A stretch of DNA of 64,000 nucleotides. It comes from an uncultured Ectothiorhodospiraceae bacterium. Lineage in GTDB: Bacteria; Pseudomonadota; Gammaproteobacteria; DSM-5130; Acidihalobacteraceae. Below the pieces are notes generated by a model. That model worked only from the letters and a program-made list of their open reading frames with translations, was not told the DNA's origin and made no database searches. The stretch lies in assembly GCA_964620825.1 (NCBI GenBank), contig CAZUKD010000002.1:233-64232 (forward strand), read 5' to 3'. Positions 11,111-29,594 of this stretch are shown in pieces; within the stretch, counting starts at the first letter, position 1, and every line of letters starts with the position of its first letter. The translations under genes and the position numbers were made by a program.

Positions 11111-11168
11111 TAACCGATTCCACTGATACAGAATTCTGAACGCTCTCCTTTCCGATGGCCCAAGTATG

Positions 11169-12162: not shown

Positions 12163-12313
12163 GTCACTATTCAGCTCACCTCTGAAATATGCCATTTCTG
12201 CGTTGAAAAATGATCATTTACCCCGGTAAACTCACATTTTCCGTCTTGAACTGACGGATTTCAGGGGCAATCTGAATAGTGACCGGTATTACTCAAGGGT
12301 GCTGAATAGTTAC
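12163..12313. mobile_element. 151-bp MITE with terminal inverted repeats and 8-bp target-site duplication
   Basis: Ends GTCACTATTCAGC and GCTGAATAGTTAC; TCAACCGG on both flanks (12155-12162, 12314-12321). Confidence 0.75.
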
Positions 12314-12333
12314 TCAACCGGATCATTAACGCA

Positions 12334-12756: not shown

Positions 12757-12840
12757 ATGCCGTATCTATATGCCGCCTTGAGACTTCATCCTTTCCTTCG
12801 CTTGATTTTCTTTCGACGATATGATGAGTCATTGATTTTG

Positions 12841-12916
12841 TGGAGCTGGCGACAGGAGTCGAACCCGCGACCTGCTGATTACAAATCAGCCGCTCTACCA
12901 TCTGAGCTACGCCAGC
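12841..12916 (-). tRNA. tRNA-Thr(TGT)
   Basis: Reverse complement GCTGGCGTAGCTCAGATGGTAGAGCGGCTGATTTGTAATCAGCAGGTCGCGGGTTCGACTCCTGTCGCCAGCTCCA. Confidence 0.97.
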
Positions 12917-12981
12917 AACAGTAGGAATTCTAGGCAAGATCAACTGGCAAAGCAATCAGGGAAAGATGCGGGTTGGATATG

Positions 12982-13788: not shown

Positions 13789-14697
13789 TCAAAGGAGGTT
13801 GGGCGGCTGGCATTTTTGTTGCGGTGGATCATCAGGTCCAACCTGATTCGGAAGATGAGGTTCCTGCAGATAAGCGCAACTGGATTTTGGCTGTAAGCGC
13901 AGGCTTACTTCGCCGCTTTCCAGAGTCAGGATACCTTGTGGGCGCCGGATTCGCAGGCGCCCGTGGGCATCGATACCCTCACCCTCGCCTTCAAAAATGT
14001 GCCCACCGCTCCGTTTAATGCGTAGAATCCGCTGATAAGTGAGATCGTACCCCGGCCAGCTTGCCATCAGTTTCCCGCTCTGGCGCTGATCCAACAGCAA
14101 ACAGGTGCGCAGCAGGGCATCAAGCAGGGAGGCAACCAGCCGATTGCGCTGTTGGCGTATTCCCGGAATCAGTGTAGCCATGCCGATGGCAGGTACCTGC
14201 CCCATTGCCGGTAAGTTGTGGGAGCAGAGATTGAGTCCCAAGCCGATGATCCAGTAACTCCGCCCCCGGCGCTGGAGGTGTTCGGTGAGAATACCGGCTA
14301 ATTTACATTCCCTGACGTAGAGATCATTGGGCCATTTGATCCCGATCCCCCGGATACCGAGTGCATCCAGTGCGGTTGTGATGGCCATACCAAAGGCCAG
14401 GGTAACCGGTTGCGCGAACCAATCGGTGGCGTCTCCTTGCCAGGCGAGAGAGAGGTAGATGCTGCCATTAGGTGGTGAAAACCAGGCCCGCCCACGCCGA
14501 CCCCGTCCTTCTGTCTGCTGCTCGGCGAGGCAGACCTCTCTTGGTGCGTCTCGCGCCATGAGTAGCTCATCGGCCAGCCAGCGACTGGTCGAGGGGAGGG
14601 TGTCGAATCGATGGATGGCACGGCACATCTCGCGGCCCTCAGTGCACAGATACCGCCTGATCTTATCCCCATTAAGGCGTTCACAGTCGATCAGCAT
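13789..14697 (-). CDS. birA: Biotin protein ligase lacking the N-terminal HTH
   Basis: QTEGRGRRGRAW, KWPND, KLAGIL; likely start is ATG 14697 because the longer ORF overlaps virK. Confidence 0.9.
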   Translation of the reverse strand: MLIDCERLNGDKIRRYLCTEGREMCRAIHRFDTLPSTSRWLADELLMARDAPREVCLAEQQTEGRGRRGRAWFSPPNGSIYLSLAWQGDATDWFAQPVTLAFGMAITTALDALGIRGIGIKWPNDLYVRECKLAGILTEHLQRRGRSYWIIGLGLNLCSHNLPAMGQVPAIGMATLIPGIRQQRNRLVASLLDALLRTCLLLDQRQSGKLMASWPGYDLTYQRILRIKRSGGHIFEGEGEGIDAHGRLRIRRPQGILTLESGEVSLRLQPKSSCAYLQEPHLPNQVGPDDPPQQKCQPPNLL

Positions 14698-15646
14698 GAA
14701 TCGTTTCCGGTGGGGTTGGCGGATTCGACTGTGCGAGGGTGGCGATGATTTGGGTGATGAGCGTATCGCGCAGTCGTTCCCGATGGCGGGCCGCTGAGCG
14801 TTTCCGGGAAGGCAGCGCCTCGATCGGCTTATGATCCTTGCGCAGGGGGATGCGCCAGTAGCCCGCAGCATCGGCTGTTCCACCCAGTTCGGCAGCGTAA
14901 GCATCGTAATCGAAAGTCCATGCCGTCATCGTATTGCGTTTACGTAACCGGCTGCGCGGATGGCGATAGACGTGATCCCCGGTGGCGATCAGGCCAAGAT
15001 ACGCCACGCCTGCGGCCTCGCCGATAGCGCGAGCGGCTTCCAGCATCAGATCGCGGGGACGGTAACCATAGAGATCCCGGGTGATCCGGCGTACCAGATC
15101 GCGGCCATCCGCGCCGGTTGGCCCTTGCAGGCAACCGATGAACAATAGCCTTTGGCCTTGCTCTTGAAGCAGGCTAACGCAAAAAGTGTAAACCCGGCGC
15201 TGCCCGTCCAGCAGGTGTACGGTCCATTCCCCTTCCTTGGAAAAACGGTTCGCATAGGTAAGCTGAAGGTGGTAGGTGTGCGCATGGCGATTCGGGATAC
15301 AGGCAAGCTCGATGGGTGCTTGCGCTATTTTCAGACACAATGCCACCCAGTTGAGCCGATCACAGCACTCGTAATGCGCAAGGATAACCGCCAATCGTTG
15401 GCGGGCATTGAGATGCGCACGCAAATAAGGCCGGTGCAGCCGTTCAAATAGCCAGGGTTGCAAGGTGACTATCCGGGCGACGGGGGGATTGGCTTCCAGA
15501 TAATCGAGTAAATCACGGGTTACCGTGGCATAAAACAGGGATCGGGCCAGGAAGCGCAATCTTTTGCGGGTTTCCACGGGGTGCAGTTGGCGGGCGAAGG
15601 GTTGCAGGCGCGCCAGGAGTGCCGATTGGGAGCGTGGATTCATCAT
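14681..15646 (-). CDS. VirK/YbjX (DUF535) family protein
   Basis: RPYL, KEGE, FIGCLQG, TRDLYGYRP, FDYD, PSRKRS; ATGA overlap with purK. Confidence 0.8.
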   Translation of the reverse strand: MMNPRSQSALLARLQPFARQLHPVETRKRLRFLARSLFYATVTRDLLDYLEANPPVARIVTLQPWLFERLHRPYLRAHLNARQRLAVILAHYECCDRLNWVALCLKIAQAPIELACIPNRHAHTYHLQLTYANRFSKEGEWTVHLLDGQRRVYTFCVSLLQEQGQRLLFIGCLQGPTGADGRDLVRRITRDLYGYRPRDLMLEAARAIGEAAGVAYLGLIATGDHVYRHPRSRLRKRNTMTAWTFDYDAYAAELGGTADAAGYWRIPLRKDHKPIEALPSRKRSAARHRERLRDTLITQIIATLAQSNPPTPPETIHADRL

Positions 15647-16794
15647 GATTCCATGGCCTGGGTTTGACTCGCTAACCGGGCAAAAGTCGTTTGGGCACGG
15701 GTCAGGGCAGTCGCCCGATCTTCGTTGAGAACGCAAAAATGGCCCATTTTGCGGCCAGGCCGGGCCAGACGCTTACCATATAAATGTAATCTGGCGCCGG
15801 GGCAGGCGAAGACCGGCGTCCAGTCCGGCTCGCCCTGGTGCCACAAGTCGCCCAATAGATTGATCATGACCACCGGGCTGAGCAGGCGGGTATCGCCAAG
15901 CGGCAGGCCGCAGAGCGCTCGTAATTGCTGCTCGAATTGCGAGACAGGGCAGGCGTCCACCGTGTAGTGGCCGCTGTTGTGAGGCCGCGGGGCGATCTCA
16001 TTGACTAGCAGATCGCCGCCGGTGGTTATGAAGAATTCCACTGCCATGACCCCCCGATATGCAAGATCGTGAGCTATTCTGAGAGCGAGATTCACCGCTT
16101 CACTGGCGAGTGATGGGGAAAGCAGTGCGGGGATGATGGAGCAGTCCAGAATACCGTTGTGGTGTCGGTTTTCTGCGATCGGGAAGATCGCTGCCTCGCC
16201 CCCGGCGCCACGGGCCAGGATGACGGATATTTCTTGTTTCAGCGTGATCCGCTGCTCCAGGATGCAGGGATGGTTACCGAGTGCGTGAAAGGCCGGTAAC
16301 AGATCCTCGATGGCCTTAATGGGCCGTTGTCCCTTGCCATCATAGCCACAATCGGCGCGCTTTAAGATGGCAGGTGTGCCGATTCTCTCCAGTGCGGGGA
16401 GCAAATCGGCGGCCTCGTGGATGCAGACGAAAGTCACAGTTGGCAGATTGCGCTCGCGCAGAAAGCATTTTTCCGTGATGCGGTTCTGGGTGATGCGTAC
16501 TACTTGGGGTTGCGGATAAACAGGGAGGCTGTGAGCGAGATATTCCAGGGCTTCAACGGGGATATTCTCGAATTCCGTGGTGATCGCCGCGCAGTTCGTC
16601 GCCAGGTGCTTGAGTGCCCACGGATCGTCGTAAGCGGCGTGGAGATGTTCGTCCGCTACCCGTCCCGCGGGGCTGTCCGGATCGGGATCGAGTACGATGA
16701 TCCGATAGCCAAGATCATGTGCGGCGAGGATAAACAGGCGCCCAAGCTGCCCGCCGCCCAATATGCCAAGCGTTGCACCAGGCAGAATTTTCAT
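15643..16794 (-). CDS. purK: N5-CAIR synthase
   Basis: GILGGGQLG, TEFENI, GYDGKGQ, NEIAPRPHNSGH, RKMGH. Confidence 0.97.
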   Translation of the reverse strand: MKILPGATLGILGGGQLGRLFILAAHDLGYRIIVLDPDPDSPAGRVADEHLHAAYDDPWALKHLATNCAAITTEFENIPVEALEYLAHSLPVYPQPQVVRITQNRITEKCFLRERNLPTVTFVCIHEAADLLPALERIGTPAILKRADCGYDGKGQRPIKAIEDLLPAFHALGNHPCILEQRITLKQEISVILARGAGGEAAIFPIAENRHHNGILDCSIIPALLSPSLASEAVNLALRIAHDLAYRGVMAVEFFITTGGDLLVNEIAPRPHNSGHYTVDACPVSQFEQQLRALCGLPLGDTRLLSPVVMINLLGDLWHQGEPDWTPVFACPGARLHLYGKRLARPGRKMGHFCVLNEDRATALTRAQTTFARLASQTQAMES

Positions 16795-17291
16795 GCCTCA
16801 GGCGGGAGACGTGAGGCCAGCACTCGCTGGCGTTGGGTGGCGCGAAATTCATCCAAACGACAGGCGAGCCCAGGATTGGTGGTAGCCAGCAAGGCGATGG
16901 CGAACAGCGCGGCATTATCAGCGCCTGCCTCGCCGATGGCGAAAGTGGCAACCGGCACGCCGGCTGGCATTTGCACGATGGACAGCAATGAATCCTGGCC
17001 GTAGAGATGGCGGGTTGGAATGGGCACGCCCAATACGGGGATGCGCGTCTTGGCCGCTAACATGCCCGGCAAGTGCGCGGCGCCGCCGGCGCCGGCGATA
17101 ATGGCGGCAAACCCGCAAGAGACTGCGGATTCAGCGTATTCAAACAATAGATCCGGGGTACGGTGGGCGGAGATCACACGTGCCTCACAGTGGATATCAA
17201 ATGCTTTCAGTTGTTCTACCGAGCGCTGCATCACCGGCCAGTCGCTGGTTGAACCCATAACCACACCCACCTGAACAGATTGATTTTTCAT
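16791..17291 (-). CDS. purE: N5-CAIR mutase
   Basis: VMGSTSD, SAHRTP, AGGAAHLPGM, SIVQMPAGVPVAT. Confidence 0.97.
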   Translation of the reverse strand: MKNQSVQVGVVMGSTSDWPVMQRSVEQLKAFDIHCEARVISAHRTPDLLFEYAESAVSCGFAAIIAGAGGAAHLPGMLAAKTRIPVLGVPIPTRHLYGQDSLLSIVQMPAGVPVATFAIGEAGADNAALFAIALLATTNPGLACRLDEFRATQRQRVLASRLPPEA

Positions 17292-17386
17292 TGGCTTTGC
17301 CCTTCAAGGATTCTGAAAATACGCCATGATTCCCGTCATGACAGATGGCGTCAAGCAAGCTGGCGTGTATTAAGGGGATTTTATGA

Positions 17387-18040
17387 TCATTCAGCGCCCC
17401 GGCGGAAGGTCAAATTAAAGCGATGCACGCCGGTCAACGGATGCGCTCCCGGTTTGAGTGGGGCGACGCCATGATAGTTCAGCCGCGAGGATCCACCCCA
17501 GACCACGATATCTCCGTGGCGTAATGCGATTGCCCGGCGAGGATCGAGTCGCCGCCTTCCACCCCAGAGAAAAACCGCCGGCAGCCCCAGAGACACCGAA
17601 ACGATGGGTGCTGTCAGATCACGTTCGTCGCGGTCCTGGTGCAGGCCCATGCGCGCGCCGGGCACATAATCATTGATCAGGCAGCTATCAGGGTGGAATC
17701 CGGGGAATCCCGCTGCGGTGGCAGCCCGGGTGGCCAATTGCAGCAATACCGCGGGCAGCGGCGGCCAGGGGCGGCCACTCTTGGGATCAATAGGGCTATA
17801 GCGATAACCGCGCCGGTCGCTGACCCAGCCTAGCGTACCGCAGTTGCTCATTGCTACCGACATGACGTGCCCACCCGGGACGGTCATGTATCGCAGCGGC
17901 GCCTGGGTAGTCAGCGCATTGATGGCGTTAATCAGTGCAGGCGCGAGCAGATCAGCCCGGCCCGGCAACAGACACGCGCCCTCGGTGAGCCAAATGGCGG
18001 GTTGGGGTTCAGGCAGCCCGAAGAAGAGATCAGCCGTCAT
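17387..18040 (-). CDS. alkB: DNA oxidative demethylase AlkB
   Basis: MSVAMSNCG, GWVSDRRGYRY, LHQDRDE, HGVAP, RFNLTFR; start 18040 or 18106. Confidence 0.93.
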   Translation of the reverse strand: MTADLFFGLPEPQPAIWLTEGACLLPGRADLLAPALINAINALTTQAPLRYMTVPGGHVMSVAMSNCGTLGWVSDRRGYRYSPIDPKSGRPWPPLPAVLLQLATRAATAAGFPGFHPDSCLINDYVPGARMGLHQDRDERDLTAPIVSVSLGLPAVFLWGGRRRLDPRRAIALRHGDIVVWGGSSRLNYHGVAPLKPGAHPLTGVHRFNLTFRRGAE

Positions 18041-18129
18041 CGCGCTGGTGCAGCGGTGGATCCGGGCGCTGCCGGGAGTGCAGCGTTGTCTGTCGATTTT
18101 CTTCATGGCGTTATATTACCCGGATACTG

Positions 18130-18161
18130 CCCCGCTCCAATCCATGGGAGTTGGAGCGGGG
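18130..18161. repeat. 11-bp-arm GC-rich hairpin between alkB and cyc2
   Basis: CCCCGCTCCAA-N10-TTGGAGCGGGG. Confidence 0.5.
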
Positions 18162-18201
18162 AACAGGCTAGCTGGATAATTACAAAAATATTACTCATTT
18201 A

Positions 18202-18215
18202 TTGATATGGATCAA
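18202..18215. promoter_or_regulatory. FNR/ANR-type box
   Basis: TTGAT-ATGG-ATCAA, exact consensus; palindrome extends to TTTATTGAT...ATCAATAAA. Confidence 0.75.
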
Positions 18216-18490
18216 TAAAACATTCAATCAGGTCTTGCAAAGCAGGATTAAATCCTCTTTACTTCACTTAACCGGACTTAACCGGAACGTGGATCGGGGT
18301 TTGAACTTCGATTGGGTTATGGGTTGTACTGGCATTTGTCAGGATTATGGTCTATAAAGATTCACCAGACGTCAGGAAATGTTAAATCCTGTGTCTTGCC
18401 GTTGACATGAGTTGGTGGCGCTTATTAGTAAAACGAACGGAAACCTTTGTCATAAAGCCATATTGTCACAATGCTTTGGAGGTAGTTAGG

Positions 18491-19846
18491 ATGAAAGTCA
18501 ATCAGAAGCTTAGAAAAGCAATCAGGCTGGGGTTGTCATCGGCGTTGATCGTCGGCGGTGGCGCCTATTCCATTAACGCCATGTCGATGCCGTCGTTCGC
18601 GCGGCAGACCGGCTGGTCGTGTGCGACCTGTCACACGGCATTCCCGCAGCTGACCCCGATGGGGCGGATGTTCAAGCTGCTCGGTTACACCACTTACAAC
18701 GTGCAGCGCCAGCAAAAAGTCGAAGCCAAGCTGGGCAAGAATACCGCCTTGCTGTTGATGCGCCTGTCACAGTTCTCGGTATTCGTCCAGGCAAACTATA
18801 TGGATGTTAAAAATTCTGCTAAGGCGAGTGGTGGTTCCCCCAGTGGGATCGAATTCCCGCAAGCGGTCAGCTTGTTCTATGCTGGCGAGATCACGCCGCA
18901 GGTGGGCACCTTCTTCCATGTCACCCGGGATAGCGGTACTGGCCAAATGGTCGTGGATGATAGTGACGTGCGCTGGGCGCATCCTTGGGCGGTGGGCAGA
19001 AATGGGCAGAATCTGGTCATTACCGGCTTGACGTTTAACAACTCCGTGACCGAGCCTGATATCTACAACTCCATGCCTAACTGGGGCGCGCCCTTCATGG
19101 CGAGTGATGCGGTCGGGAATAGTGAGCCGGGTGGTAATCTACTGGTGGGCGGGCTTGCCGCCGCCGGTGCTCCGATAGCGGGCGCGGGGGGTTATTTGGC
19201 CTATTTGTGGGGCCAGGATCGCGCCAACTGGCTATATCTGGAAGCCGATGCTTATAATGGTAACGCCCTCAATGGAACTGGTGCTACATCCCCTGGCGGC
19301 TATAGCGGCCTTGAAGGGGTTCCTGTCGGAAAAATGGATGGGACGGCACCCTATCTCCGGGTAGCCTATCAGCGTGATTGGGGTAACTGGAACGCTGAAC
19401 TCGGCGCTTATTGGATGACGGCCAAGATCTGGCAAACTGCAACCAATAGTGGGGCAGAGAACAAATACACGGATACTGTCCTACAAACCCAGATCCAGTG
19501 GCTTGATACCCTCAACAACAATAACCTGACCATTCTCGGCAATTACTTCCACGAGCATCAGGAGTTCGCTGGAATTACCGGGCATCAGAATGAGACTAAG
19601 ATCAACGCAACCTACTGGTATCACGACATGTACGGTGCCCAGGCGGGGTATGTCGATGTGACAGCAACGAAAAATACGAATGCTGACAACCCACAACAGA
19701 CCGGCTACTGGCTGCAGGGTTCTTACCAGCCCTGGTACAATATGCGCTTATCTGTTCGTTATACGGGGTACAACAAGTTCCTTGATACGACCAACAATGC
19801 CAGTGATGCTAACACCTGGTCGTTGATGAGCTGGTTTGCATTCTGA
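18491..19846 (+). CDS. cyc2: Outer-membrane cytochrome c-porin fusion Cyc2 (putative iron oxidase)
   Basis: Signal peptide, then PSFARQTGWSCATCHTAFPQLTPMGRMFKLLGY (single CxxCH, Cyc2 signature); beta-barrel-like C-terminus ending in F; GGAGG RBS before ATG 18491. Confidence 0.93.
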   Translation: MKVNQKLRKAIRLGLSSALIVGGGAYSINAMSMPSFARQTGWSCATCHTAFPQLTPMGRMFKLLGYTTYNVQRQQKVEAKLGKNTALLLMRLSQFSVFVQANYMDVKNSAKASGGSPSGIEFPQAVSLFYAGEITPQVGTFFHVTRDSGTGQMVVDDSDVRWAHPWAVGRNGQNLVITGLTFNNSVTEPDIYNSMPNWGAPFMASDAVGNSEPGGNLLVGGLAAAGAPIAGAGGYLAYLWGQDRANWLYLEADAYNGNALNGTGATSPGGYSGLEGVPVGKMDGTAPYLRVAYQRDWGNWNAELGAYWMTAKIWQTATNSGAENKYTDTVLQTQIQWLDTLNNNNLTILGNYFHEHQEFAGITGHQNETKINATYWYHDMYGAQAGYVDVTATKNTNADNPQQTGYWLQGSYQPWYNMRLSVRYTGYNKFLDTTNNASDANTWSLMSWFAF

Positions 19847-19862
19847 AATAGGAGACATAGTA

Positions 19863-20537
19863 ATGAGACAGATGATGAAGCAAAAAGTAGATGGCACGCG
19901 GGCTGTGCGTAGAAAATCCGGTTTAAGCCGGATGGCTTTGGCATTAGGTGCCGCGGCATTGCTCGCAACGCCGCTTGCCTTTGCCGGTGGCGGCAGCGGC
20001 GCCGTACCCACAAAAGTGACCAATTCCTGCATGATCTGCCACGGCATGACCGGGGAGAACACGCTGTATCCGATCATTCCCCGGTTGGCCGGTCAGCAGG
20101 CGCAGTATATCACCCAGCAGTTAAAGCAGTTCAAGACGGGTGTGCGGGATGATCCGAATGCCAATCTGTATATGTTGCCGGTGGCGCAATCACTGGATGG
20201 CCAGCAGCGGAAACAGTTGGCGAAGTATTTTGCCAAACAAGCCCCCATGCAGGGTGTCACAGGCGGGTCGCTTCAGGAAGCCAAGGCAGGCAAACAGATC
20301 TTCATGCAGGGTATCCCGGAGAAGAATGTGGCGGCCTGTATGGCCTGTCACGGGATTCATGCCCAGGGTAGCGGTGCCTTCCCGCGGTTGGCGGGCCAGC
20401 GCTTTGGCTATATCGTTGCCCAGTTGGGTTATTTCAAGAGCGGCGCACGCAAGAGCCAGATTATGCAGGCGATCGTATCGGGACTGAACAATCAACAAAT
20501 GAAAGATGTGGCGGCTTATGTCACACGTTTGAAATAA
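19863..20537 (+). CDS. cyc1: Diheme cytochrome c4, Cyc1 (c552) type
   Basis: CMICHGMTGENTLYPIIPRLAGQ and CMACH...FPRLAGQRFGY; closely resembles the recalled A. ferrooxidans Cyc1. Confidence 0.88.
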   Translation: MRQMMKQKVDGTRAVRRKSGLSRMALALGAAALLATPLAFAGGGSGAVPTKVTNSCMICHGMTGENTLYPIIPRLAGQQAQYITQQLKQFKTGVRDDPNANLYMLPVAQSLDGQQRKQLAKYFAKQAPMQGVTGGSLQEAKAGKQIFMQGIPEKNVAACMACHGIHAQGSGAFPRLAGQRFGYIVAQLGYFKSGARKSQIMQAIVSGLNNQQMKDVAAYVTRLK

Positions 20538-20552
20538 AGAGTTGGATTGGAG

Positions 20553-20618
20553 GAGCCTGTCGGGAGGGAGTGATGGACGTGAGGTTCATGTCAGTTTCTC
20601 CCGGCAGGCTTTGTTTTG
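20553..20618 (+). terminator. Putative intrinsic terminator after cyc1
   Basis: GAGCCTGTCGGGAG...CTCCCGGCAGGCTT followed by TGTTTT. Confidence 0.6.
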
Positions 20619-21013
20619 ATCGCCCGATAGCTTTCTCAAGCGGCTTGCAGGTTGGGGTTTAATCCTGGTTTGTGCGGTGGGCTGACTTTCAGCAGAGCCT
20701 GGTCTTTGGATTTATGGGTTGAGTTTGTCGATTAAGAAAAAAGTTTATGACATTTAATCGAACCTGACGGAACTTGTGGCCCATACTTCAGTCAGAAGAG
20801 TTTTACTAAAAGTAAAATTGTGGTTTTTGTGCGGGAAGCCGTGGAATTCCAGCCTGTTTTGAGCGGGTTTTCCGGGATCTGTCAGCCTTAAATGATAATG
20901 ATGCCGTAAAGCAGTTTTGGCGCAGGATTCCTGCGGGTTTGAGCGGATTATTGGATTGACTTGAAGTATAAACCGTCTGGTTTTTGATTGGCCCAATCAT
21001 TGAGGTGTGGTAC

Positions 21014-21706
21014 ATGAGACGCAAGAAATCCCTTCTAAAATCAATTTCTTTAGTGGCCAGCGCGGTGATTCTGATGCCCATCGCGGCGATCGCCGCACCC
21101 GCAGCGGGAGCGGCAAACACCAGCGCCAAGCCGATAACCCGCCCCCCAGCGGCGCGCCTAGCTCAAGTGGGCATTCCCAAGATCGTACAAACAACCTGCT
21201 TTGCCTGTCATGGTCTGCATGGCATGGCGGTGACCTCTGCCTATCCGAACCTGGCCGGACAATGGCCGAGTTATATCGAAAAGCAGTTACATAACTTCAA
21301 GACACACAAACGCGCTGATCCGTTGGCACCGGTCATGTGGGCGATGGCAGCTCCGCTTAGTGACAAGACCATCAAGCAGGTTGCACAATATTTCTTCATA
21401 CAAAAGCCGGCCCCAGGCAAGAGTTTTGCTCCGAAACAGGTGGCAGCGGGTCGCAAGATCTATTTTGGTGGCTTGCCGAGTAAAGGGGTGCCGGCCTGTT
21501 ATGCCTGTCATGGGGGAACCGCCGCTGGGCTTCCCCCCTGGTTTCCGCGCTTGGCCGGCCAGCGACGTCAGTATGTCGTCAATCAGTTGACCTACTTTAA
21601 AAAGGGACTGCGAACCAATGACCCCAAGAGCATGATGCGCTATATCGCCTCGCGTCTGAGCGCGAAGCAGATCAAGGAAATGGCTGCATTCGTGCGCTCT
21701 GAGTGA
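21014..21706 (+). CDS. cycA: Diheme cytochrome c4, CycA type (petI operon)
   Basis: CFACH...YPNLAGQ, CYACH...FPRLAGQ; first gene of cycA-sdrA-petABC. Confidence 0.85.
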   Translation: MRRKKSLLKSISLVASAVILMPIAAIAAPAAGAANTSAKPITRPPAARLAQVGIPKIVQTTCFACHGLHGMAVTSAYPNLAGQWPSYIEKQLHNFKTHKRADPLAPVMWAMAAPLSDKTIKQVAQYFFIQKPAPGKSFAPKQVAAGRKIYFGGLPSKGVPACYACHGGTAAGLPPWFPRLAGQRRQYVVNQLTYFKKGLRTNDPKSMMRYIASRLSAKQIKEMAAFVRSE

Positions 21707-21720
21707 GCGGAGAACCCGGT

Positions 21721-22542
21721 ATGGATGAGCATTCCAGGCAGGCTGGGATTAAAGAGGATGCGCTCAAGGGTAAGGTGATTCTGGTCACCGGCGCGAGTAA
21801 GGGGATCGGCCGGGCAGTGTCACTGGAATACGCCCGTAAAGGTGCAACTGTTTTACTGCTGGGAAAGACGCAACCCGATCTGGAGAATCTATACGACGAG
21901 ATTGTGGGGAATGGATATCCGGAGCCTGCAATCATGGTTGTGGATCTAGGTGAATCAGGCCATGACGCATTTAAAACAGTGGGTCTGGCAATTGCGCAGA
22001 ATTTCGATCAGCTTGATGGCATCGTACATAATGCTGTATTTCTGGGGCAATTGATGCCACTGGAGGATATCGAGGATATTTTCTGGGATCAAACCTTCCA
22101 GGTCAATCTGCGCGCACCCTTTCTAATCACCCGGCAATGCTTGCCGGTGCTTGAGGCGGCACCCTATGCCTCGGTTATTTTTACAGGAGAAGCCTCGGGG
22201 CGGGCGCCTATTGGCTATTGGGGCGCTTATGGCATCAGTAAAGCGGCCTTGATTCATATGGCCAAGACCTGGGCCATCGAGTATACCAAAACCAGCATCC
22301 GCATGAATATCATTGATCCAGGGCCTTGTCGCACGGGCTTGCGCTGGATAACGCATGCGGGTATGCCGATGCAGAGTTATCCGCCACCAGAGGCGATTAC
22401 AGCCATCTATGTCCGTTTGATGACCGCTGAGGTGATGCAGCATAACGGCGAGATTTTCGATGCCCAGGACTGGTTCGATCCAGCAAAAGATGACCGCAGC
22501 GAGGAAGATAAACGAATTCTTTTGGAAGCCAGTATTTCCTGA
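21721..22542 (+). CDS. sdrA: Short-chain dehydrogenase SdrA (YciK-like)
   Basis: TGASKGIG, YWGAYGISK (YxxxK); position within the pet operon. Confidence 0.85.
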   Translation: MDEHSRQAGIKEDALKGKVILVTGASKGIGRAVSLEYARKGATVLLLGKTQPDLENLYDEIVGNGYPEPAIMVVDLGESGHDAFKTVGLAIAQNFDQLDGIVHNAVFLGQLMPLEDIEDIFWDQTFQVNLRAPFLITRQCLPVLEAAPYASVIFTGEASGRAPIGYWGAYGISKAALIHMAKTWAIEYTKTSIRMNIIDPGPCRTGLRWITHAGMPMQSYPPPEAITAIYVRLMTAEVMQHNGEIFDAQDWFDPAKDDRSEEDKRILLEASIS

Positions 22543-22563
22543 ACTAATAAGGAGCGAAAGACC

Positions 22564-23205
22564 ATGTCAGATACCCACAACACACTGGACGACAAGCCGT
22601 CCATTCAGCGCCATCCAGAGGACAAGACCAAACGGCGATTTTTAATCGCTGCATTGGCCGGTGCCGGAGGCACCGTTATCGGCGTGACGGTCGGCCCCAT
22701 GATCAAGACGCTCTATCCCACCGCTGCGCAGAAAGCGCTGTCGATTACCACGATTGATTTGAATCTGGTGATGCCGGGTATGCAGTTTATCGCCATGTGG
22801 CAGGGTAAGCCTGTGATCACGATCAACCGCACCAAGGCCATGCTCAAGCAGGTGCTGTTGGCGCAAAACAAGAATCTGTTGAAGGACCCACACTGCAAGA
22901 TTCCGCAGCAGCCTCCCTATTGTCCCGCGCCTTACCGCGCCCGCGTGCCGCAATGGTATGTCGGCATCAAGATCTGCAACCATTTGTGTTGTGTGCCGCA
23001 TTATAAGCCCATACTGCATAGCGTAACGTCCTGGTGGCCGGGAGGGTTTCATTGCCCTTGCCATGGGTCCATGTATGATCTCTCTGCCCGGGTCATCCAT
23101 GGTTCCCCGGCACCCCACAACATGACGATCCCGGAATACACTATTGATCTTAAGAAAATGGAAGTGGTGGTGACCAAATGGTATCCACCGGCGGTGTTGT
23201 GTTGA
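22564..23205 (+). CDS. petA: Rieske Fe-S subunit of the bc1 complex
   Basis: KRRFL Tat-like anchor, CNHLCC and CPCHGSMY boxes. Confidence 0.95.
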   Translation: MSDTHNTLDDKPSIQRHPEDKTKRRFLIAALAGAGGTVIGVTVGPMIKTLYPTAAQKALSITTIDLNLVMPGMQFIAMWQGKPVITINRTKAMLKQVLLAQNKNLLKDPHCKIPQQPPYCPAPYRARVPQWYVGIKICNHLCCVPHYKPILHSVTSWWPGGFHCPCHGSMYDLSARVIHGSPAPHNMTIPEYTIDLKKMEVVVTKWYPPAVLC

Positions 23206-23259
23206 TAGATTAAATGTCGTTGTGCTATTGGATTGGATCATGAATGGAGGAATGCACCC

Positions 23260-24474
23260 ATGAGTTTAAAGGAATGGATTGACAAAAGATCCCCGCTGTC
23301 GGAAATGCTGCGCGAGCATGTCACGGAATATTACGCGCCCAAAAACTTCAATATCTTTTATTATGCCGGTTCGCTGCTGATTTTCCTGATAGTGTTGCAA
23401 TTTATCAGCGGGTTTTTTCTGCTGGCGCATTATGTCCCTAATGGGCCTGCGGCATATACATCGACGATGGCTATCATATACGATGTCCATTGGGGCTGGA
23501 TGATACAATACCTGCATGTCGATGGAGTTTCGCTGATATTCGTGTTGATTTATCTGCATATGGCCCGCGGTATGCTGTACGGGTCATATAAGGCCCCGCG
23601 TGAGCTCGTCTGGCTGATCGGTTATGTGATCTACATGCTCATGGCGGGTGAAGCCTTTTTTGGTTATATACTGACTTACTCGAATCTGTCTTTCTGGGCG
23701 GGTACGGTCATTACCGCCATTGCCGGGTCGATCCCCGTGATCGGGAAGTGGCTGGAGATGCTGCTGCGTGGTGGGCCTGGAATTTCCGCGGATACCGTAG
23801 AGCGGTTTTTGTCTTTGCACGTCACCCTGATTTTCCTCCTGATTGTAGCGCTCATCGTGTTTCACATTCTGTATCTGCACAAAGTGGGCTCCAACAACCC
23901 GGATGGCATCGAGATCCACGACAATGAAGATAAGCACGGCCATCCGCTGGACGGGATTCCATTCCATCCGTATTACTCGGTGAAAGATCTGTTTGGCATG
24001 GGCGTGTTTCTCACCATTTTTTCCTGGATCCTGTTCTACGAGCCAACCTTCTTCCATATCTTCCTGGAGCGGACCATGTCGACACCGGCGAATCCGCTAA
24101 AGAGCTTGCCGGACGTTAGCCCACCCTGGTACCTCGGGGCTTATTACGCGATTCTGCGGGGTTACTCGATCAAGATGCTGGGTATTGGTCTGATGCTCCT
24201 GGCTCTGGTGATGCCTCTCTTCTTGCCGTGGCTGGATCGGAGTGCGGTGAGATCCACCCGTTATCGTCCGTTGACACGGATCCTGTGGCTCATTTTCTTC
24301 GCCGATTTTGCCTGGCTGACGTATATGGGTGCATTGCCGGCTCTTCCAAGCTTGATCATACCGCAGCGAATCGCAGGGCTGATTTACCTCAGCTTCTTCG
24401 TTGCTCTTCCCATCGTGAGTAGTTTTGAACCCACGCGACAGCTGCCAAAGCGTGTCCGCTACCACGCGCATTGA
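23260..24474 (+). CDS. petB: Cytochrome b of the bc1 complex
   Basis: YLHVDG...YLHMARG and SLHV...FHILYLH heme ligands, GSNNPDG, PFHPYY, PPWY Qo motif. Confidence 0.97.
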   Translation: MSLKEWIDKRSPLSEMLREHVTEYYAPKNFNIFYYAGSLLIFLIVLQFISGFFLLAHYVPNGPAAYTSTMAIIYDVHWGWMIQYLHVDGVSLIFVLIYLHMARGMLYGSYKAPRELVWLIGYVIYMLMAGEAFFGYILTYSNLSFWAGTVITAIAGSIPVIGKWLEMLLRGGPGISADTVERFLSLHVTLIFLLIVALIVFHILYLHKVGSNNPDGIEIHDNEDKHGHPLDGIPFHPYYSVKDLFGMGVFLTIFSWILFYEPTFFHIFLERTMSTPANPLKSLPDVSPPWYLGAYYAILRGYSIKMLGIGLMLLALVMPLFLPWLDRSAVRSTRYRPLTRILWLIFFADFAWLTYMGALPALPSLIIPQRIAGLIYLSFFVALPIVSSFEPTRQLPKRVRYHAH

Positions 24475-24501
24475 TCAGCCGATAATAAGGAGAAATGGAT
24501 C

Positions 24502-25200
24502 ATGAAGAAATATCTAGGGATTATCGGGTTGGCAGCTAGCATGGGATTAGTTGCACCCTCTGCATTCGCAGAGAGCAGCCCCAAATTACTGGTACCGCAT
24601 ATCACCATGTCGAAGACGCAGGTCATTGCCGGGGCCAAACTGTTTGCCGAGCGCTGTATGGCCTGCCACTCCCTGACATTCATGCGCTACAGCTATCTAC
24701 ATGCAGATCTTGGCCTGTCCAAGGCGGCGATCAAGAAATATATCTTGCTACCGGGTAAGGCTAATTATCTGGGACACATGATTTCGCCCATGCCGCCGAA
24801 GATGGCCGTCAAATGGTTCGGCAGGCAGCCCCCCAATCTGAGTCAGATGGAGCGCTACAAGGGGCCTGACTGGATCTACACCTATTTGCTGTCTTTCTAT
24901 TGGGACCCACAGCGCCCATCGGGCTGGGATAACCATATTTTCCCCAATGTAGCAATGCCCAACATCATGGCTCCATGGGGCGGGATTGTGAATATCAAGG
25001 GCAAGGTGCTGGTGGCGGGCAGTGAATCCCAGCAGGAATTTCGTCAACAGATGACGAATATCGTTGCCTTTTTGAAGTACGTTTCCGATCCGTCCTATTA
25101 TGTACGGCACCGGATTGGCCCGTGGATGATCGGTATCCTGGTGTTCTTCACGATAATTGCCTATCTGGTGAAACGGGAATTCTGGAAAGACGTCAAATAA
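24502..25200 (+). CDS. petC: Cytochrome c1 of the bc1 complex
   Basis: CMACHS, WFGRQPPNLS, VAMPNI, C-terminal TM helix and KREFWKDVK. Confidence 0.95.
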   Translation: MKKYLGIIGLAASMGLVAPSAFAESSPKLLVPHITMSKTQVIAGAKLFAERCMACHSLTFMRYSYLHADLGLSKAAIKKYILLPGKANYLGHMISPMPPKMAVKWFGRQPPNLSQMERYKGPDWIYTYLLSFYWDPQRPSGWDNHIFPNVAMPNIMAPWGGIVNIKGKVLVAGSESQQEFRQQMTNIVAFLKYVSDPSYYVRHRIGPWMIGILVFFTIIAYLVKREFWKDVK

Positions 25201-25308
25201 CGAGGGAGGGCGATACCCCGGTTCATAGGCTTAATAGTTACCATCTTTCATCTTTATTACTATACTGATAACTGTATGCACTAAGCGTGAGAATGAAGCA
25301 GGAATCTT

Positions 25309-28300
25309 ATGATGGAGGAGCAAGGTGGTGGCAATGGAGGCCAGCTCAGACCCCCGCCAACCGGGGCGCTGCTAAAGCGGATGTGGCCCGAGCGTGCGCT
25401 GGTCTATGGGCTGCTGCTGGGTTTCGCCTTGTTTTCCGGTTTCTATACCTGGTACAGCGTTCTGCAATTTCGTACCGAGCAAATTACCGACCTCGACCGG
25501 TTGGCGGAGGTCGGGATGACCGGATTAATCGCCGATTATCTCCATCGACTGGATACCGAGACGCAAACGCTGTTGGCCATGCATGGCCGGAGGGAAATCC
25601 TGCGGCCTGCGGATAAGAGCTTGCTGGCTCTGAGCCTGCGTGGAGCCGATGGTCAATGGCGTACACTATTCGGTTCCCCCGTGCCTGTGCGGTTGCGCGG
25701 TATCCCATGCCCTCGACCCGATGGCTGTATTCTGGAGGTGCAGCCTGTGCCCGGTTCTCGGGTAGGCCAGGGTGTCTTGTGGTTACGCCGCCCGTGGCGC
25801 GGACAAACGATCTATGCCGCCAGTTCGATTGTCGTGCTGCAAAAATTGTGGCGGAGCATTCCGCAGCGTGCTGCGGATGCCTTGTTTCTGCGTCCGGTCG
25901 GCGGTAAACCCATCCAGATCTGGCCGCTGCGAGTCATGCCAGGCGCTATCCGGGTAGTTGCTTGGGCGCCGGTGAATGGTAGTAAGCTGGAGTTGGGTGT
26001 CGGCGCATTGGCGTCATCGCTGCATCGAAGGTGGCGGGAAATCATCTGGCCAGGTATGTTGTTCCTGTTACTGGTTTTACTCTTAGCGGAAGCCGCGATC
26101 CGCGCGGCTGAACGCCGATCTGCGCTAACCCAGGCTAAAATACTGGATAATCAGCACCAAATTAGCCGGATCAAGAACCTGTACTCCACGCTTTCGGATG
26201 CCAATCAGCTGATTATTCACCATCCCGATCCACAGACACTGTTTAATACCGTTTGTCGCTTGCTGGTCGATCGAGTCGGTATCAATGCGGCGTACATCGG
26301 TTGGCTGGACGCCGCGGCAGTCTCTGGAGCAGCTAAAGAGGAATCAGGGGTGCGTTGGGTTGCCTGGGCTGCCCAGGGAAAAGTTGATGGCGATCTATCC
26401 TGTCAGCCACAGCCCGGCGTGGTGGAGCATGTACAAATGACTGGGGCGATGGGCTTGGAGTCTGCGCCTATGGCTTGTAAGCATTCCAGTTGTTGTACGC
26501 ATGATGCAACCCAGGTGGGATTTCCAATCCGCCAGCAGGATCGCATTGTGGCTCTGTTGTGGTTATGCGTAGGTCGGCGCATGATCGAAAATCAAGAAGT
26601 GCAAGACCTGCTAAGAGAACTGGTGGGTGATCTGGGTTATTCTCTGGAGGACAATGCACAGCGCCAGCAATTGCGCTATGCCGCTTATCATGATCGGTTG
26701 ACCGGTCTGGCCAATGATCTGCACCTGCTTGAAACCCTGCGAACCGCAGGTGAGCAGCCCGGTACGCAGGGCATTCTCATCGCCCTGGCTTTCCGGCGGA
26801 TTAACGAAATCAATGCGACCTATGGCTGGGATGCAGGGGATGGCCTGATGCGCGTAGCCGCCCAACGCTTGCAAGTGTTGGGCGGCGCCTATCCAGGTGG
26901 ATTAGCGGCGCGGGTGGGGGGTAACCATCTGTTTTTACTCTTACCCGGTATCGATGGTGTTCAGGCCAAGAGGCTAATCCGGGAGGTGGTGCAGCGCTTA
27001 GCGGAGCCGATCTTGCTCGGTGATGTCACGCTCTATAATTCGGAACCGCACGCGGGTTGGGCGTGCTGGCCGGAACATTGGGACGGAGCGGAACGCCTGT
27101 TGGTGCGGGCCGAGCTTGCCTTGGAAATGGCTAGGTCTCTAACCGGCGCGGAATTATGTGTTGTGCGGTTTGCATCGGAGATGGAGGAAACGGTGCGGGA
27201 GGCGGGAACGGTGCGCCGGGAATTTTCCCGTGCACTCGCTCAAGGTGATCTGGTGTTGTATTACCAGCCGATCTTAAACCTCACCGATGGCTGCATTACC
27301 GGCATGGAATCGCTGATCCGCTGGATCGGTTCGGATGGCGTTGTGCGCCCACCGAATCGTTTCATACCCTATATCGAGCAGGATGCCCAGTGCTTGCGAG
27401 CGCTGGGGCGGTTCGTACTCGACCAGGGGTTGGCTCAGGTGACCCGCTGGTCCCGGGCGGGATTGGTGATCGATGTGGCGGTGAATATCGGCGCCAGCCA
27501 TCTCGTTGATCCGGCCTTTATCGATGATCTGCGCGCTGCCCTGGAAGCACATCCCGATGCTGCTCCAGAACACCTGACTATCGAATTGACCGAGAGCGCT
27601 TACCTTGGCGCTCCGGAAGTTGCCAGTGCTGTTCTGAAGAAGGTGCGGGCACTGGGTATCCGTGTGGCACTGGATGATTTTGGTACCGCCTACGCTTCGC
27701 TATCCTATTTGCAACAATTGCCGGTGGATCGCATCAAGGTGGATATATCCTTCACTCAGCAATTGCTCAAGGGGCAGCGCGCCGAGGCGATCATCAGTGG
27801 CGTGATCATGACCGCCCGTCTGCTCGGTATTGAGGTGATCGCAGAAGGAGTGGAAACTGAAGACCAGGCGCATCTACTACGTCATATGGGCTGCGACAAA
27901 CTGCAAGGCTACCGGATCGCCCGGCCAATGCCCGCCAATGAGGCCGATACCTGGTTGCAGGCATGGAATCCAGCGCCATGGGCAAACGCAGAAGACGGAG
28001 TGCTCGAACCCTTGCTAGCCCACGCACGGATGTTTTACGTGGTTTTGCAGGATTGGGCTTGTGTGAAGCAGATTAAATATTTGGCGGTGGGTGAGGCAGA
28101 GGCTGTTATTTGTTCCTGGCTGAGAGAGGAGGATGAGTTCAGGCTGGTATTCGAGCGATTTGAGTCTGCCTCGGAGCGTGAGCGCTGGTGGCGGATTCCG
28201 GAGGTAATGCGCGATAATTATCTCACGCTATTGCGGGAAGCACAGATGTTGGTCAGCGGCCTGGGCCAGCTCAATGAGGAGGAAGTTCAGTGTGCCACCG

Positions 28301-28398
28301 ATTCCTTGGCCATGCGCTTTGAAACTTTCATGTACAATTTGGCCCGGCAACCTTTTCCGCTAACCGATCTGCGCCTCACCGGGCCACGCGAAAGCTGA
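25309..28398 (+). CDS. Membrane-anchored GAF / degenerate GGDEF / EAL c-di-GMP phosphodiesterase
   Basis: Two TM segments; GAF-like region; HDRLTGL...ARVGGNHL (degenerate GGDEF); ESLIRW, IELTES, ALDDFGTAYASL, IAEGVET, LQGY. Confidence 0.88.
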   Translation: MMEEQGGGNGGQLRPPPTGALLKRMWPERALVYGLLLGFALFSGFYTWYSVLQFRTEQITDLDRLAEVGMTGLIADYLHRLDTETQTLLAMHGRREILRPADKSLLALSLRGADGQWRTLFGSPVPVRLRGIPCPRPDGCILEVQPVPGSRVGQGVLWLRRPWRGQTIYAASSIVVLQKLWRSIPQRAADALFLRPVGGKPIQIWPLRVMPGAIRVVAWAPVNGSKLELGVGALASSLHRRWREIIWPGMLFLLLVLLLAEAAIRAAERRSALTQAKILDNQHQISRIKNLYSTLSDANQLIIHHPDPQTLFNTVCRLLVDRVGINAAYIGWLDAAAVSGAAKEESGVRWVAWAAQGKVDGDLSCQPQPGVVEHVQMTGAMGLESAPMACKHSSCCTHDATQVGFPIRQQDRIVALLWLCVGRRMIENQEVQDLLRELVGDLGYSLEDNAQRQQLRYAAYHDRLTGLANDLHLLETLRTAGEQPGTQGILIALAFRRINEINATYGWDAGDGLMRVAAQRLQVLGGAYPGGLAARVGGNHLFLLLPGIDGVQAKRLIREVVQRLAEPILLGDVTLYNSEPHAGWACWPEHWDGAERLLVRAELALEMARSLTGAELCVVRFASEMEETVREAGTVRREFSRALAQGDLVLYYQPILNLTDGCITGMESLIRWIGSDGVVRPPNRFIPYIEQDAQCLRALGRFVLDQGLAQVTRWSRAGLVIDVAVNIGASHLVDPAFIDDLRAALEAHPDAAPEHLTIELTESAYLGAPEVASAVLKKVRALGIRVALDDFGTAYASLSYLQQLPVDRIKVDISFTQQLLKGQRAEAIISGVIMTARLLGIEVIAEGVETEDQAHLLRHMGCDKLQGYRIARPMPANEADTWLQAWNPAPWANAEDGVLEPLLAHARMFYVVLQDWACVKQIKYLAVGEAEAVICSWLREEDEFRLVFERFESASERERWWRIPEVMRDNYLTLLREAQMLVSGLGQLNEEEVQCATDSLAMRFETFMYNLARQPFPLTDLRLTGPRES

Positions 28399-28538
28399 AG
28401 AAGAATGGTGAGTTTATCTCGCATCATGGGTGATCTGGCAGAAGCTGGTTGGCGCGGACGAGCCGGTTTTGCCGCGGATTTCAGTACGGTGAGTGAGGAC
28501 GGTGGGAACTTTGATTCCTCGATCGGGTCTGACAGGCC

Positions 28539-29594
28539 ATGTTAGGACTTCCCTACGACCAGCTAGTCTACCCCAATCCGCTAAATATCGATTCGATCGC
28601 CGTTACGCTCGGCCCACTGAAGGTGCATTGGTATGCGCTGGCCTATCTGGTCGCTTTCGCCCTGTATCTGCTGCTGGCCATGTTCCGGGCTGGCAAGCCG
28701 GGCTACAGCCTCAATCGCGCTCAGGCCATCGAGGCCCTGTTCGCCGGTGAGCTGGGCGCCTATCTGGGTGGTCGCATCGGTTATATCCTGTTTTACAATT
28801 TACCGCTCTACCTGGCGCATCCCTTGAGTATTTTTGCGATCTGGCAGGGTGGTATGAGTTTTCATGGTGGCCTGATCGGGGTCATTATCGCCCTTTATCC
28901 GCTCGCACGCCGGGAAAAGATGAGCCTGCTGCAAGTGACCGATTTCGTGGCACCACTGATTCCGCTGGGATTGGCGGCGGGGCGGCTGGGTAACTTCATC
29001 AACGGTAATTTATTTGGCCGGGTCTGCCACGGCTCTTTCCCCGGGTGTGCCTATTTCCCCTATGGTGGAGATGTGCTGCGCTATCCCTCGCAGTTGTTCG
29101 AGGGGGCCGGGGAAGGTCTTGCACTGTTTGCGATCCTGTGGCTGTTTTCGCGCCGAGTGCGGCCGACCGCTGCGGTGTCGGCGCTATTTTTGCTGAGCTA
29201 CGGAATCATTCGCTTCGTACTCGAATTCTGGCGACAGCCTGACCCGCAACTGGGGTTTGTGGCCTTCGGCTGGATGACTATGGGGCAGCTGCTGTCGATC
29301 CCGATGATGATCGGCGGTGTGGCGATGCTGGTGTGGGCTTACGCACCCGCTGGGCGGACGGCACAGCCTTTGCTGGCGCAAGCCGGTCAGGGGTTGATCC
29401 CCCTACCTAAGCGCGGGATTATAGGCGAAGAGAGGCACCGATCCTGGCAGCCTGGCAGGCGCCAAACGGGCCTGGCGGCCGCTATGGGCATTAGGCGTCA
29501 GACATGGATTGCGGGCGCGTGGCGCACACCGGGCAGGCCGGGTCGCGCGGTAGCCGCAAGGTACGCCATTCCATCTGCAACGCATCGAGGATGA
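28539..29594 (+). CDS. lgt: Prolipoprotein diacylglyceryl transferase with a C-terminal extension
   Basis: VHWY, GGRIGY, GGMSFHGG, GRLGNFING, PSQLFE, RFVLEFWRQPD, TMGQLLS; 3' end overlaps moeB. Confidence 0.88.
   Translation: MLGLPYDQLVYPNPLNIDSIAVTLGPLKVHWYALAYLVAFALYLLLAMFRAGKPGYSLNRAQAIEALFAGELGAYLGGRIGYILFYNLPLYLAHPLSIFAIWQGGMSFHGGLIGVIIALYPLARREKMSLLQVTDFVAPLIPLGLAAGRLGNFINGNLFGRVCHGSFPGCAYFPYGGDVLRYPSQLFEGAGEGLALFAILWLFSRRVRPTAAVSALFLLSYGIIRFVLEFWRQPDPQLGFVAFGWMTMGQLLSIPMMIGGVAMLVWAYAPAGRTAQPLLAQAGQGLIPLPKRGIIGEERHRSWQPGRRQTGLAAAMGIRRQTWIAGAWRTPGRPGRAVAARYAIPSATHRG

Follow-up and report, generated by a model that had tools for sequence, protein, structure and literature searches.

We analysed a window of 64,000 nucleotides (the whole stretch examined; G000:C2:233-64232), which is part of a 67-kb contig in the metagenome-assembled genome (MAG) of its host, G000. 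Seven co-oriented genes on the + strand of this window, spanning positions 18491 to 25200, are predicted to join an iron-facing cytochrome module to a complete cytochrome bc1 complex. Cyc2 is the main gene marker for calling iron oxidisers in metagenomes, and the accepted acidophile pathway runs from it via rusticyanin and an aa3 oxidase. The first gene, cyc2 (18491..19846), encodes a putative outer-membrane fused monohaem cytochrome-porin of 451 amino acids (aa) with one CXXCH motif and no match in Pfam or NCBIfam. It is followed by a cyc1-like gene for a periplasmic dihaem cytochrome c4 (19863..20537; two CXXCH; PF00034, 61.7 bits; PDB 1H1O, E 1.4e-55), by a hairpin with a T-tract that may act as an intrinsic terminator or attenuator (20550..20617), by a cycA-like gene for a second dihaem c4 (21014..21706; two CXXCH; 1H1O, E 1.5e-33) and by sdrA, which encodes a YciK-like short-chain dehydrogenase (21703..22542; PF00106, 128 bits; NF006509, 236.6 bits, below its cut-off of 269). 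The Rieske iron-sulfur subunit (petA, 22564..23205; TIGR01416, 173.2 bits, cut-off 97.4), cytochrome b (petB, 23233..24474; PF00033, 170 bits; PF00032, 88.8 bits) and cytochrome c1 (petC, 24502..25200; PF02167, 64.5 bits, cut-off 22.8) lie in one operon, all above curated cut-offs. An initial annotation of this DNA had given the same order, shared orientation and overall span, and our analysis confirms them. Its statement that no cup, cox or rus gene lies in the window also holds: no gene of that kind was hit there when the Acidithiobacillus ferruginosus rus-operon proteins Cup, CoxB, CoxA, CoxC and Rus served as tblastn queries.

The product of 18491-19846 carries a series of recognisable features. 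A GGAGG motif lies 8-11 nt upstream of the ATG, and the N-terminus, a candidate signal peptide, is basic, then hydrophobic, ending in ...SINA, with a helix at residues 5-28 of the AlphaFold2 model. The single haem motif, CATCH (residues 44-48 of 451), is preceded by PSFARQT and followed by PQL, in columns that are invariant or nearly so in a 20-row alignment (A1); in the wider form, AXPXFAR, the window protein has S for the first A. The model, built on a 20-row alignment, has 16 strands (mean predicted local distance difference test score 63.5, barrel mostly 70-90), and its top Foldseek matches in the PDB are 16-strand general porins (probability 1.0, E 3.7e-11). The list of features that define a Cyc2 fused cytochrome-porin follows the available part of PMC8406198. 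By sequence and modelled fold the protein is a Cyc2-type fused cytochrome-porin, a family listed with Fe(II) oxidase activity, which is putative for this member. Genome and metagenome contig scans returned at most 48% identity (41-48% to Acidithiobacillus Cyc2), and a protein search gave one match at 64%, P0006.

Both dihaem cytochromes match 1H1O, the A. ferrooxidans c-552/c4 structure, and the cycA-like protein is 57-60% identical to CycA of other loci in which the same seven genes are fused. The 476-nt gap 3' of cyc1 opens with the hairpin (-45.2 kcal/mol, z -5.77), and none of 200 shuffled sequences was as stable; the T-tract that follows it is TTTGTTTT, also given as UUUGUUUU. A simple terminator scan missed this structure because its loop exceeds 8 nt. 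Given this hairpin and T-tract, transcription of cyc2-cyc1 is probably separate from that of the genes further 3', or is attenuated between the two groups. Hairpins of -30 to -42 kcal/mol (folded with no shuffle control) also lie just 3' of cyc1 in all six fused Acidithiobacillus-type loci. An Rfam search of 17900-25500 with E up to 0.1 found nothing, and a consensus promoter scan gave 10 sites against 7.7 expected, which is not above chance.

We surveyed how often this linkage recurs. Six of 20 genome loci hold the fused order cyc2-cyc1-cycA-sdrA-petABC, seven the canonical cyc2-cyc1-cup-coxBAC(-rus) and two cyc2-cyc1 alone, while three end right after cyc1 and two are fragments. The canonical order was present in 3 of 80 metagenome loci and the fused order in one (L061) of the 21 whose sequence continues for at least 5 kb downstream; among these assessable loci, no cyc2 next to bc1 turned up beyond the Acidithiobacillus-like group. 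The initial annotation had proposed a candidate undescribed system. The same synteny is present in at least seven other public sequences, and full-text literature searches found no description, in the text available, of cyc2-cyc1 directly upstream of a pet operon (the operon maps of PMC10654088, available in part, may bear on this). The cluster consists of known modules in a linkage for which we found no published description, moved into a new family.

The fused loci of Acidithiobacillus-labelled MAGs (L002, L003, L006, L007, L008, L009) and contig L061 have a gene order identical to that of the window, share the hairpin after cyc1 and encode PetB proteins 65-70% identical to the window protein. 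They differ in lying at the chromosomal pet site of an Acidithiobacillus backbone with resB close downstream, whereas the window copy sits in another family's chromosome and its PetB is sister to all of theirs. In L003 and L008 the fused locus stands behind nitronate monooxygenase (NMO), SCP2 and U32 genes, as does the chromosomal pet operon of A. ferruginosus; in these two genomes the pair of cytochrome genes thus intervenes between NMO and the chromosomal pet operon, a place that is without such a pair in A. ferruginosus. Loci L008 and L009 are mosaic, with a Cyc2 84% identical to the rus-operon Cyc2 of A. ferruginosus (L014) and a Cyc1 only 57% identical to canonical Cyc1.

Comparison with known systems places the window cluster apart from each of them. 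In the A. ferrooxidans type, the petI and petII operons stand apart from the rus operon (cyc2-cyc1-cup-coxBACD-rus); its Cyc2 (41-48%), c4 (50-57%) and CycA, SdrA and PetABC (44-67%) are homologous to those of the window and the internal pet order is the same, but in the window cyc2-cyc1 precedes the pet operon rather than cup-cox-rus, and the host family is different. The two-gene Cyc2B-Cyc1B cluster of A. ferrooxidans, described in the available parts of PMC7735108 and PMC8790237, is likewise a cyc2-cyc1 pair without cox or rus. Window Cyc2 lies no further from this B-type (L004, and P0010, which is named A. ferrooxidans; 47%) than from any other type, but the B-type pair of A. ferruginosus (L004) does not adjoin a pet operon, unlike the pair in the window. 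The other genus of the host family (L053 of G009, L058 of G011) resembles the window in holding cyc2 and bc1 in one co-oriented stretch, but this supercluster includes cup, coxBAC and rus as well, its cytochrome b is split, cycA stands at the far end, and there is no cyc1 or sdrA; its Cyc2 forms a distant branch, 36-40% identical to that of the window. Both superclusters (G009:C3:226000-245999; G011:C1:3146000-3165999) cover about 17 kb in the order cyc2-cup-coxBAC...rus...petA-split petB-petC-cycA, and further cyc2 copies lie elsewhere in each genome. The neutrophilic Cyc2-Cyc1 model of Zetaproteobacteria and Gallionellaceae also has Cyc2 followed by a periplasmic cytochrome, and cyc2 followed by a c4-like gene was found in 34 of the 80 metagenome loci; window Cyc2 differs from the neutrophilic type in belonging to the Acidithiobacillus/Acidiferrobacter clade. 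According to the available part of PMC8406198, A. ferrooxidans Cyc2 belongs to Cluster 2. Among the more distant metagenome loci L066-L139, whose Cyc2 is 29-38% identical (best segment), a c4-like gene lies directly 3' of cyc2 in 30 of 74; the pairing of cyc2 with c4 is thus much commoner than its link to bc1.

The initial annotation had labelled the downstream genes a full petI operon, which our comparisons do not support. The petI order cycA-sdrA-petA-petB-petC is present in the window, but gene order does not discriminate between petI and petII because petII has the same order. A. ferruginosus CF3 has two pet operons: L052, on plasmid pCF3-2, 7.5 kb from the canonical rus operon (L014) and followed by resB, and L051, on the chromosome behind a nitronate monooxygenase gene. 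All five window proteins are closer to the chromosomal operon L051 than to the plasmid operon L052: CycA 60% versus 58%, SdrA 60% versus 44%, PetA 61% versus 59%, PetB 67% versus 58% and PetC 59% versus 53%. SdrA separates the two most clearly, with 60-65% identity to the SdrA of fused loci and the chromosomal operon and 44% to that of the rus-linked petI. In a 17-row PetB tree, from which L002, cut by its contig, and the split cytochrome b proteins in L053 and L058 were left out, the window protein, L051 and five fused loci form a clade with 98/99 support that has plasmid L052 outside it, and the window protein is sister to all other members. By elimination, these sequences point to a bc1 that is petII-like, of the chromosomal lineage not linked to rus. 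The hip gene (encoding HiPIP, an iron-sulfur protein of high potential), placed in petII by the available part of PMC7735108, was not found with PF01355 in G000, G001, G002, G003 or G046, which include the complete A. ferruginosus genome. The same source reports that petII and the two-gene Cyc2B/Cyc1B cluster are raised during anaerobic Fe(III) reduction by A. ferrooxidans, and PMC8790237, in its available part, relays the same rise of Cyc2B/Cyc1B and petII-encoded proteins, citing Norris 2018. On pCF3-2 a plasmid replication gene (RPA) lies in the 7.5 kb between the rus operon and petI with resB; both A. ferrianus MG and A. ferruginosus CF3 carry their canonical rus operon on a plasmid (L012, L014, L052).

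The suggestion of the initial annotation that the cluster was acquired laterally is borne out by identity patterns and by trees. PurA of the host is 78-80% identical to that of G005, G006, G007 and G009 and 62-64% to that of A. ferruginosus and the five fused-locus MAGs, showing that the host is not an Acidithiobacillus. The cluster proteins display the opposite pattern: PetB is 46% identical to that of G005 and 45-47% to that of the family's other genus, versus 65-70% to Acidithiobacillus-type genomes, and the nearest homologues of the cluster proteins are in Acidithiobacillus and Acidiferrobacter. Cyc2 is present in 7 of the 41 genomes searched (G000 included), with none in the four genomes of the same genus and distant copies (36-40% identical) in all three genomes of the family's other genus; PetB is present in one of the four same-genus genomes, at 46% identity. 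In a 34-row Cyc2 tree the window protein pairs with P0006 (from one Logan contig) with support of 100; the pair nests in a clade (support 99) with every Acidithiobacillus and Acidiferrobacter homologue, and the copies from the host's own family fall outside this clade. The tree included 10 of 120 listed proteins; two fragments (L020, L021) and two sequences on very long branches (L056, L057) were left out. Together these sequence comparisons support lateral acquisition, and the length of the branch (0.69 + 0.35) speaks against its being recent. Base composition gave no island signal, with 0.51-0.55 guanine plus cytosine (GC) in the cluster against 0.46-0.55 in the contigs.

We considered whether the locus could be an artefact or a dead locus, that is, a chimeric contig, a binning error or a set of decaying genes. 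G000 (1.43 Mb, 83.6% complete, 0.01% contamination) is indeed in 80 contigs, and its cbbL gene, elsewhere in the genome, is visibly broken. However, all seven frames of the cluster are open and full length, and the housekeeping genes on the cluster-bearing contig agree with the host genus. Logan contigs, from a second assembler, match positions 14000-30000 at 100% identity with no differences and flat depth in three runs (X1, X2, X3), in which the organism's depth is about 10.8x, 49x and 9x; they bridge both the alkB-cyc2 and the petC-downstream junctions, and a single 14.3-kb contig covers 17024-30000. The three runs originate from two studies, carry the labels "metagenome" and "hydrothermal vent metagenome" and are possibly the source samples, so the check represents an independent assembler, not independent data. 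A further run from another study (X5) gave short pieces only, at 95-99% identity, one of them inside cyc2; no RNA run is among those listed for this DNA. Finally, 48-70% identity is the nearest that any known Acidithiobacillus comes to the cluster proteins, so the locus is not a contaminant read-through. We regard an artefact or dead locus as highly improbable.

We searched the assembly for the partners of the accepted pathway. Throughout G000, tblastn with the A. ferruginosus rus-operon and the G007 versions of rus, cup and cox hit only the cyo operon, and neither rusticyanin nor a plastocyanin-type cupredoxin, multicopper oxidase, HiPIP or bd oxidase was found by search. The sole haem-copper oxidase, a quinol oxidase, is cyo-type (CyoB, 846 bits) with a subunit II that is without the CuA cysteines. 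The bc1 and the cyc2 of the cluster are the only ones in the assembly. CXXCH occurs in 13 of 1499 open reading frames (ORFs): four in the cluster, one in a small cytochrome c beside resB (C18), six in non-cytochrome families and two without a family. The resB region (G000:C18:15265-19162) consists of resB, a 399-aa ORF that is probably resC/ccsA and the small cytochrome, a 156-aa monohaem protein of SoxA/TsdA type; a small SoxA/TsdA-type cytochrome also lies 3' of fused loci L003 and L008, before resB. Elsewhere the genome holds genes for DoxD, for NDH-1 (NuoD), for the quinol oxidase and for cytochrome maturation of the System II kind. Extra NuoD-family matches lie in ORFs of 524 and 538 aa (G000:C20:3180-3863, C34:10370-11098), which are possibly large subunits of membrane-bound hydrogenase-like complexes; the true nuoD is on C12. 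Among the fused-locus genomes, G002 and G003 have only cyo-type oxidases and no rusticyanin, G046 has only cyo-type oxidases (rusticyanin was not searched for there), and G004 and G045 also contain a canonical rus-type cox1, with two rusticyanins in G004.

One further gene of G000 bears on its way of life. The only RuBisCO large-subunit gene, cbbL (G000:C28:10505-11042), is broken: residues 1-82 abut 377-430, and 431-473 follow in a third frame. The cbbS gene after it is intact. All four same-genus genomes have two large-subunit genes. The state of cbbL points to genome reduction or local misassembly, and a broken cbbL is a poor fit to a lithoautotrophic Fe(II) oxidiser.

Taken together, the data lead us to favour, at a probability of roughly 40%, a portable iron-quinone wire that runs mainly outward, from quinol through bc1 and c4 to Cyc2 and Fe(III). 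The two transcription units together would wire extracellular iron to the quinone pool: the first (cyc2-cyc1) would provide a monohaem cytochrome of the outer membrane, fused to a porin of 16 strands, and a periplasmic dihaem c4, and the second (cycA-sdrA-petABC) another c4, the short-chain dehydrogenase and bc1. Quinol would be supplied by sulfur-compound oxidation, through a DoxD-type thiosulfate:quinone oxidoreductase, or by NDH-1. Running forward, bc1 would oxidise this quinol and conserve energy, the c4 cytochromes would carry the electrons across the periplasm and Cyc2 would reduce soluble Fe(III), permitting iron respiration that needs neither rusticyanin nor a cytochrome-c oxidase. The same wire could probably run inward on Fe(II) as well. 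Binding partners, direction of flow and a real absence of oxidase and rusticyanin are the parts of this proposal that we infer, and the outward direction fits at least as well as the flow from Fe(II) to quinone assumed by the initial annotation. Midpoint potentials rise outward, from about +0.39 to +0.48 V for c4 to about +0.56 V for Cyc2 and about +0.7 V for Fe(III)/Fe(II) at low pH. We favour outward flow because nothing it needs is missing from the assembly, and because the lineage of the bc1 and the rise of petII and Cyc2B/Cyc1B on Fe(III), reported in the text available from the sources cited above, fit it, as does the broken cbbL.

The same absences would equally suit an inward loop that extends the proposal of the initial annotation, in which Fe(II) electrons pass through Cyc2 and Cyc1/CycA to a bc1 working in reverse at a cost in proton-motive force, then as quinol to the bo3 oxidase, with a part going to reverse NDH-1; this loop too would need neither rusticyanin nor cytochrome-c oxidase. 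The cyo-type oxidase and NDH-1 are both present, the activity proven for Cyc2 proteins is Fe(II) oxidation (PMC8406198, available in part), and the runs labelled hydrothermal vent metagenome that contain this DNA, and may be its source samples, suggest a plausible source of Fe(II). By our reckoning reverse bc1 would cost 1 charge per electron and bo3 would yield 2, so that the net of +1 per electron, equal to that of a non-pumping cytochrome-c oxidase, would make the loop thermodynamically allowed at low pH. However, all electrons would have to go uphill first, whereas the uphill share in A. ferrooxidans is about 5% according to the available part of PMC13741234. The bc1 is from a lineage not linked to rus, cbbL is broken, we found no precedent in the literature, and the incompleteness of the MAG applies here as well. 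We consider the inward loop somewhat unlikely.

Several observations weigh against the outward wire. To our knowledge, all cultured carriers of this Cyc2 clade oxidise Fe(II), and Fe(II) oxidation is the only Cyc2 activity shown biochemically in the available part of PMC8406198. Fe(III) reduction by the porin route needs soluble Fe(III) and therefore low pH, a habitat that kinship and DoxD, and only these, suggest. The petII label was reached by elimination, and hip is absent in A. ferruginosus too. Window Cyc2 lies in a basal polytomy of its clade, so that the tree does not resolve it as B-type, and an approximately unbiased (AU) test does not reject a grouping of the window protein with the B-type pair (p-AU 0.33). 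The missing oxidase and rusticyanin are judged from a MAG that is 83.6% complete and in 80 contigs. G000 has one haem-copper oxidase versus two to five in the four same-genus genomes, and no bd oxidase versus two to five in all four. Moreover, three of these four genomes (G005, G007, G008) encode a rus-operon-type cox1 (about 363 bits, about 660 aa), which in G005 and G007 lies in a cup-coxB-coxA-coxC cluster with the CuA motif kept and a rus-like ORF, without cyc2 or cyc1.

Such gaps raise the further possibility of an ordinary branched chain like that of A. ferrooxidans with an unusual linkage, where cup-coxBAC(-cupredoxin) would lie in the unassembled part of the genome, Cyc2 and Cyc1 would feed Fe(II) electrons to the oxidase, and CycA and bc1 would serve the uphill branch or sulfur respiration. 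The rus-type cox1 of the three same-genus genomes, the order cup-coxB(CuA)-coxA-coxC then rus-like ORF in G005 and G007, and the canonical rus-type cox in two of the five fused-locus genomes (G004, G045) all agree with it, as does a MAG without several genes universal in its genus. Plasmids bin poorly, and the rus operons of two named strains (L012, L014) are plasmid-borne. On the other side, tblastn of G000 with the Acidithiobacillus and G007 Cup, CoxB, CoxA, CoxC and rus-like proteins reached only cyo. By eye, the rus-like ORF of the genus has lost its copper ligands, as different residues stand where Cys, His and Met would bind copper. One conserved flank gene of the genus's cup-cox cluster lies mid-contig on G000:C13, with the cluster not beside it and with other genes there that have no orthologue in the relatives. 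This context fits real loss and a shrinking genome, but it is only suggestive of a clean deletion because there is a single conserved flank gene in a poorly syntenic genus. We rate the branched chain as unlikely. The description of the locus as self-contained and copper-free in the initial annotation depends on the assembly, which has no rus, cup or cox; their absence from the organism is left unproven by the incomplete MAG and by the rus-type cox1 of the same genus. The two same-genus clusters (L154, G007:C7:2500-14000; L155, G005:C1:322500-334500) represent a rus-operon-type oxidase module without iron-facing cytochromes.

A broader proposal, which we advance tentatively, embraces either direction of flow: in a vent gammaproteobacterium with a shrinking genome and a quinol oxidase only, the acquired Cyc2-c4-bc1 cassette may be the sole c-cytochrome chain, a complete portable iron-quinone wire without rusticyanin or cytochrome-c oxidase that would operate by Fe(III) respiration or by looping Fe(II) electrons through reverse bc1 and bo3. 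In that case cyc2 in metagenomes would not be a marker of iron oxidation alone, and the three iron modules of acidophiles, cyc2-cyc1, cup-cox-rus and pet, would be independently mobile. Modular movement of this kind is suggested by the host's genus, which has cup-cox without cyc2, and by the present genome, which has cyc2-pet without cup-cox. The joining of cyc2-cyc1 to a bc1 operon appears to be a recurrent, transferable unit, found again in several genomes that show neither rusticyanin nor a cytochrome-c oxidase. Iron may thus couple directly to the quinone pool, in which case oxidation and respiration of iron could not be told apart from cyc2 alone.

The cluster lies between two genes native to the host, alkB and lgt. 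On the left is alkB (17387..18106, - strand; NF011930, AlkB, 318.6 bits, cut-off 267), which is 54-61% identical to alkB in three of the four same-genus genomes, where it adjoins purA. On the right the initial annotation had placed moeB, wrongly: petC is followed by a gene for a GGDEF-EAL protein (25309..28398, +; EAL 224.9 bits, GGDEF 68.3 bits) and then by lgt (28539..29594, +; TIGR00544, 252 bits), and a scan of 67 window ORFs found no MoeB-like family. The lgt product is 77% identical to that of G005 and G007. The GGDEF-EAL gene may belong to the acquired block; no orthologue of its product was found in the relatives, where the best match is 32-38% and covers the domains only.

Mapping of the insertion site gave no clean boundary; G005, G006 and G007 have purK, purE, alkB, lgt and purA in other arrangements. 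The region is heavily rearranged. The genes alkB and purA adjoin in G005 and G007 versus 29 kb apart in the window, and mtfA and lgt are 2-3 kb apart in those genomes, with a hydrolase gene and pdxH, versus 23 kb apart in the window, where the stretch between them (5600-28500) holds ppa, mltB, dnaA, coaX, birA, purEK, alkB and the iron cluster. Positions 8000-12955 have the lowest GC of this half of the window (0.46-0.47) and include dnaA (9128-10477) together with four ORFs that belong to no family (10514-10921, 11169-11921, 12334-12756 and 12686-12955).

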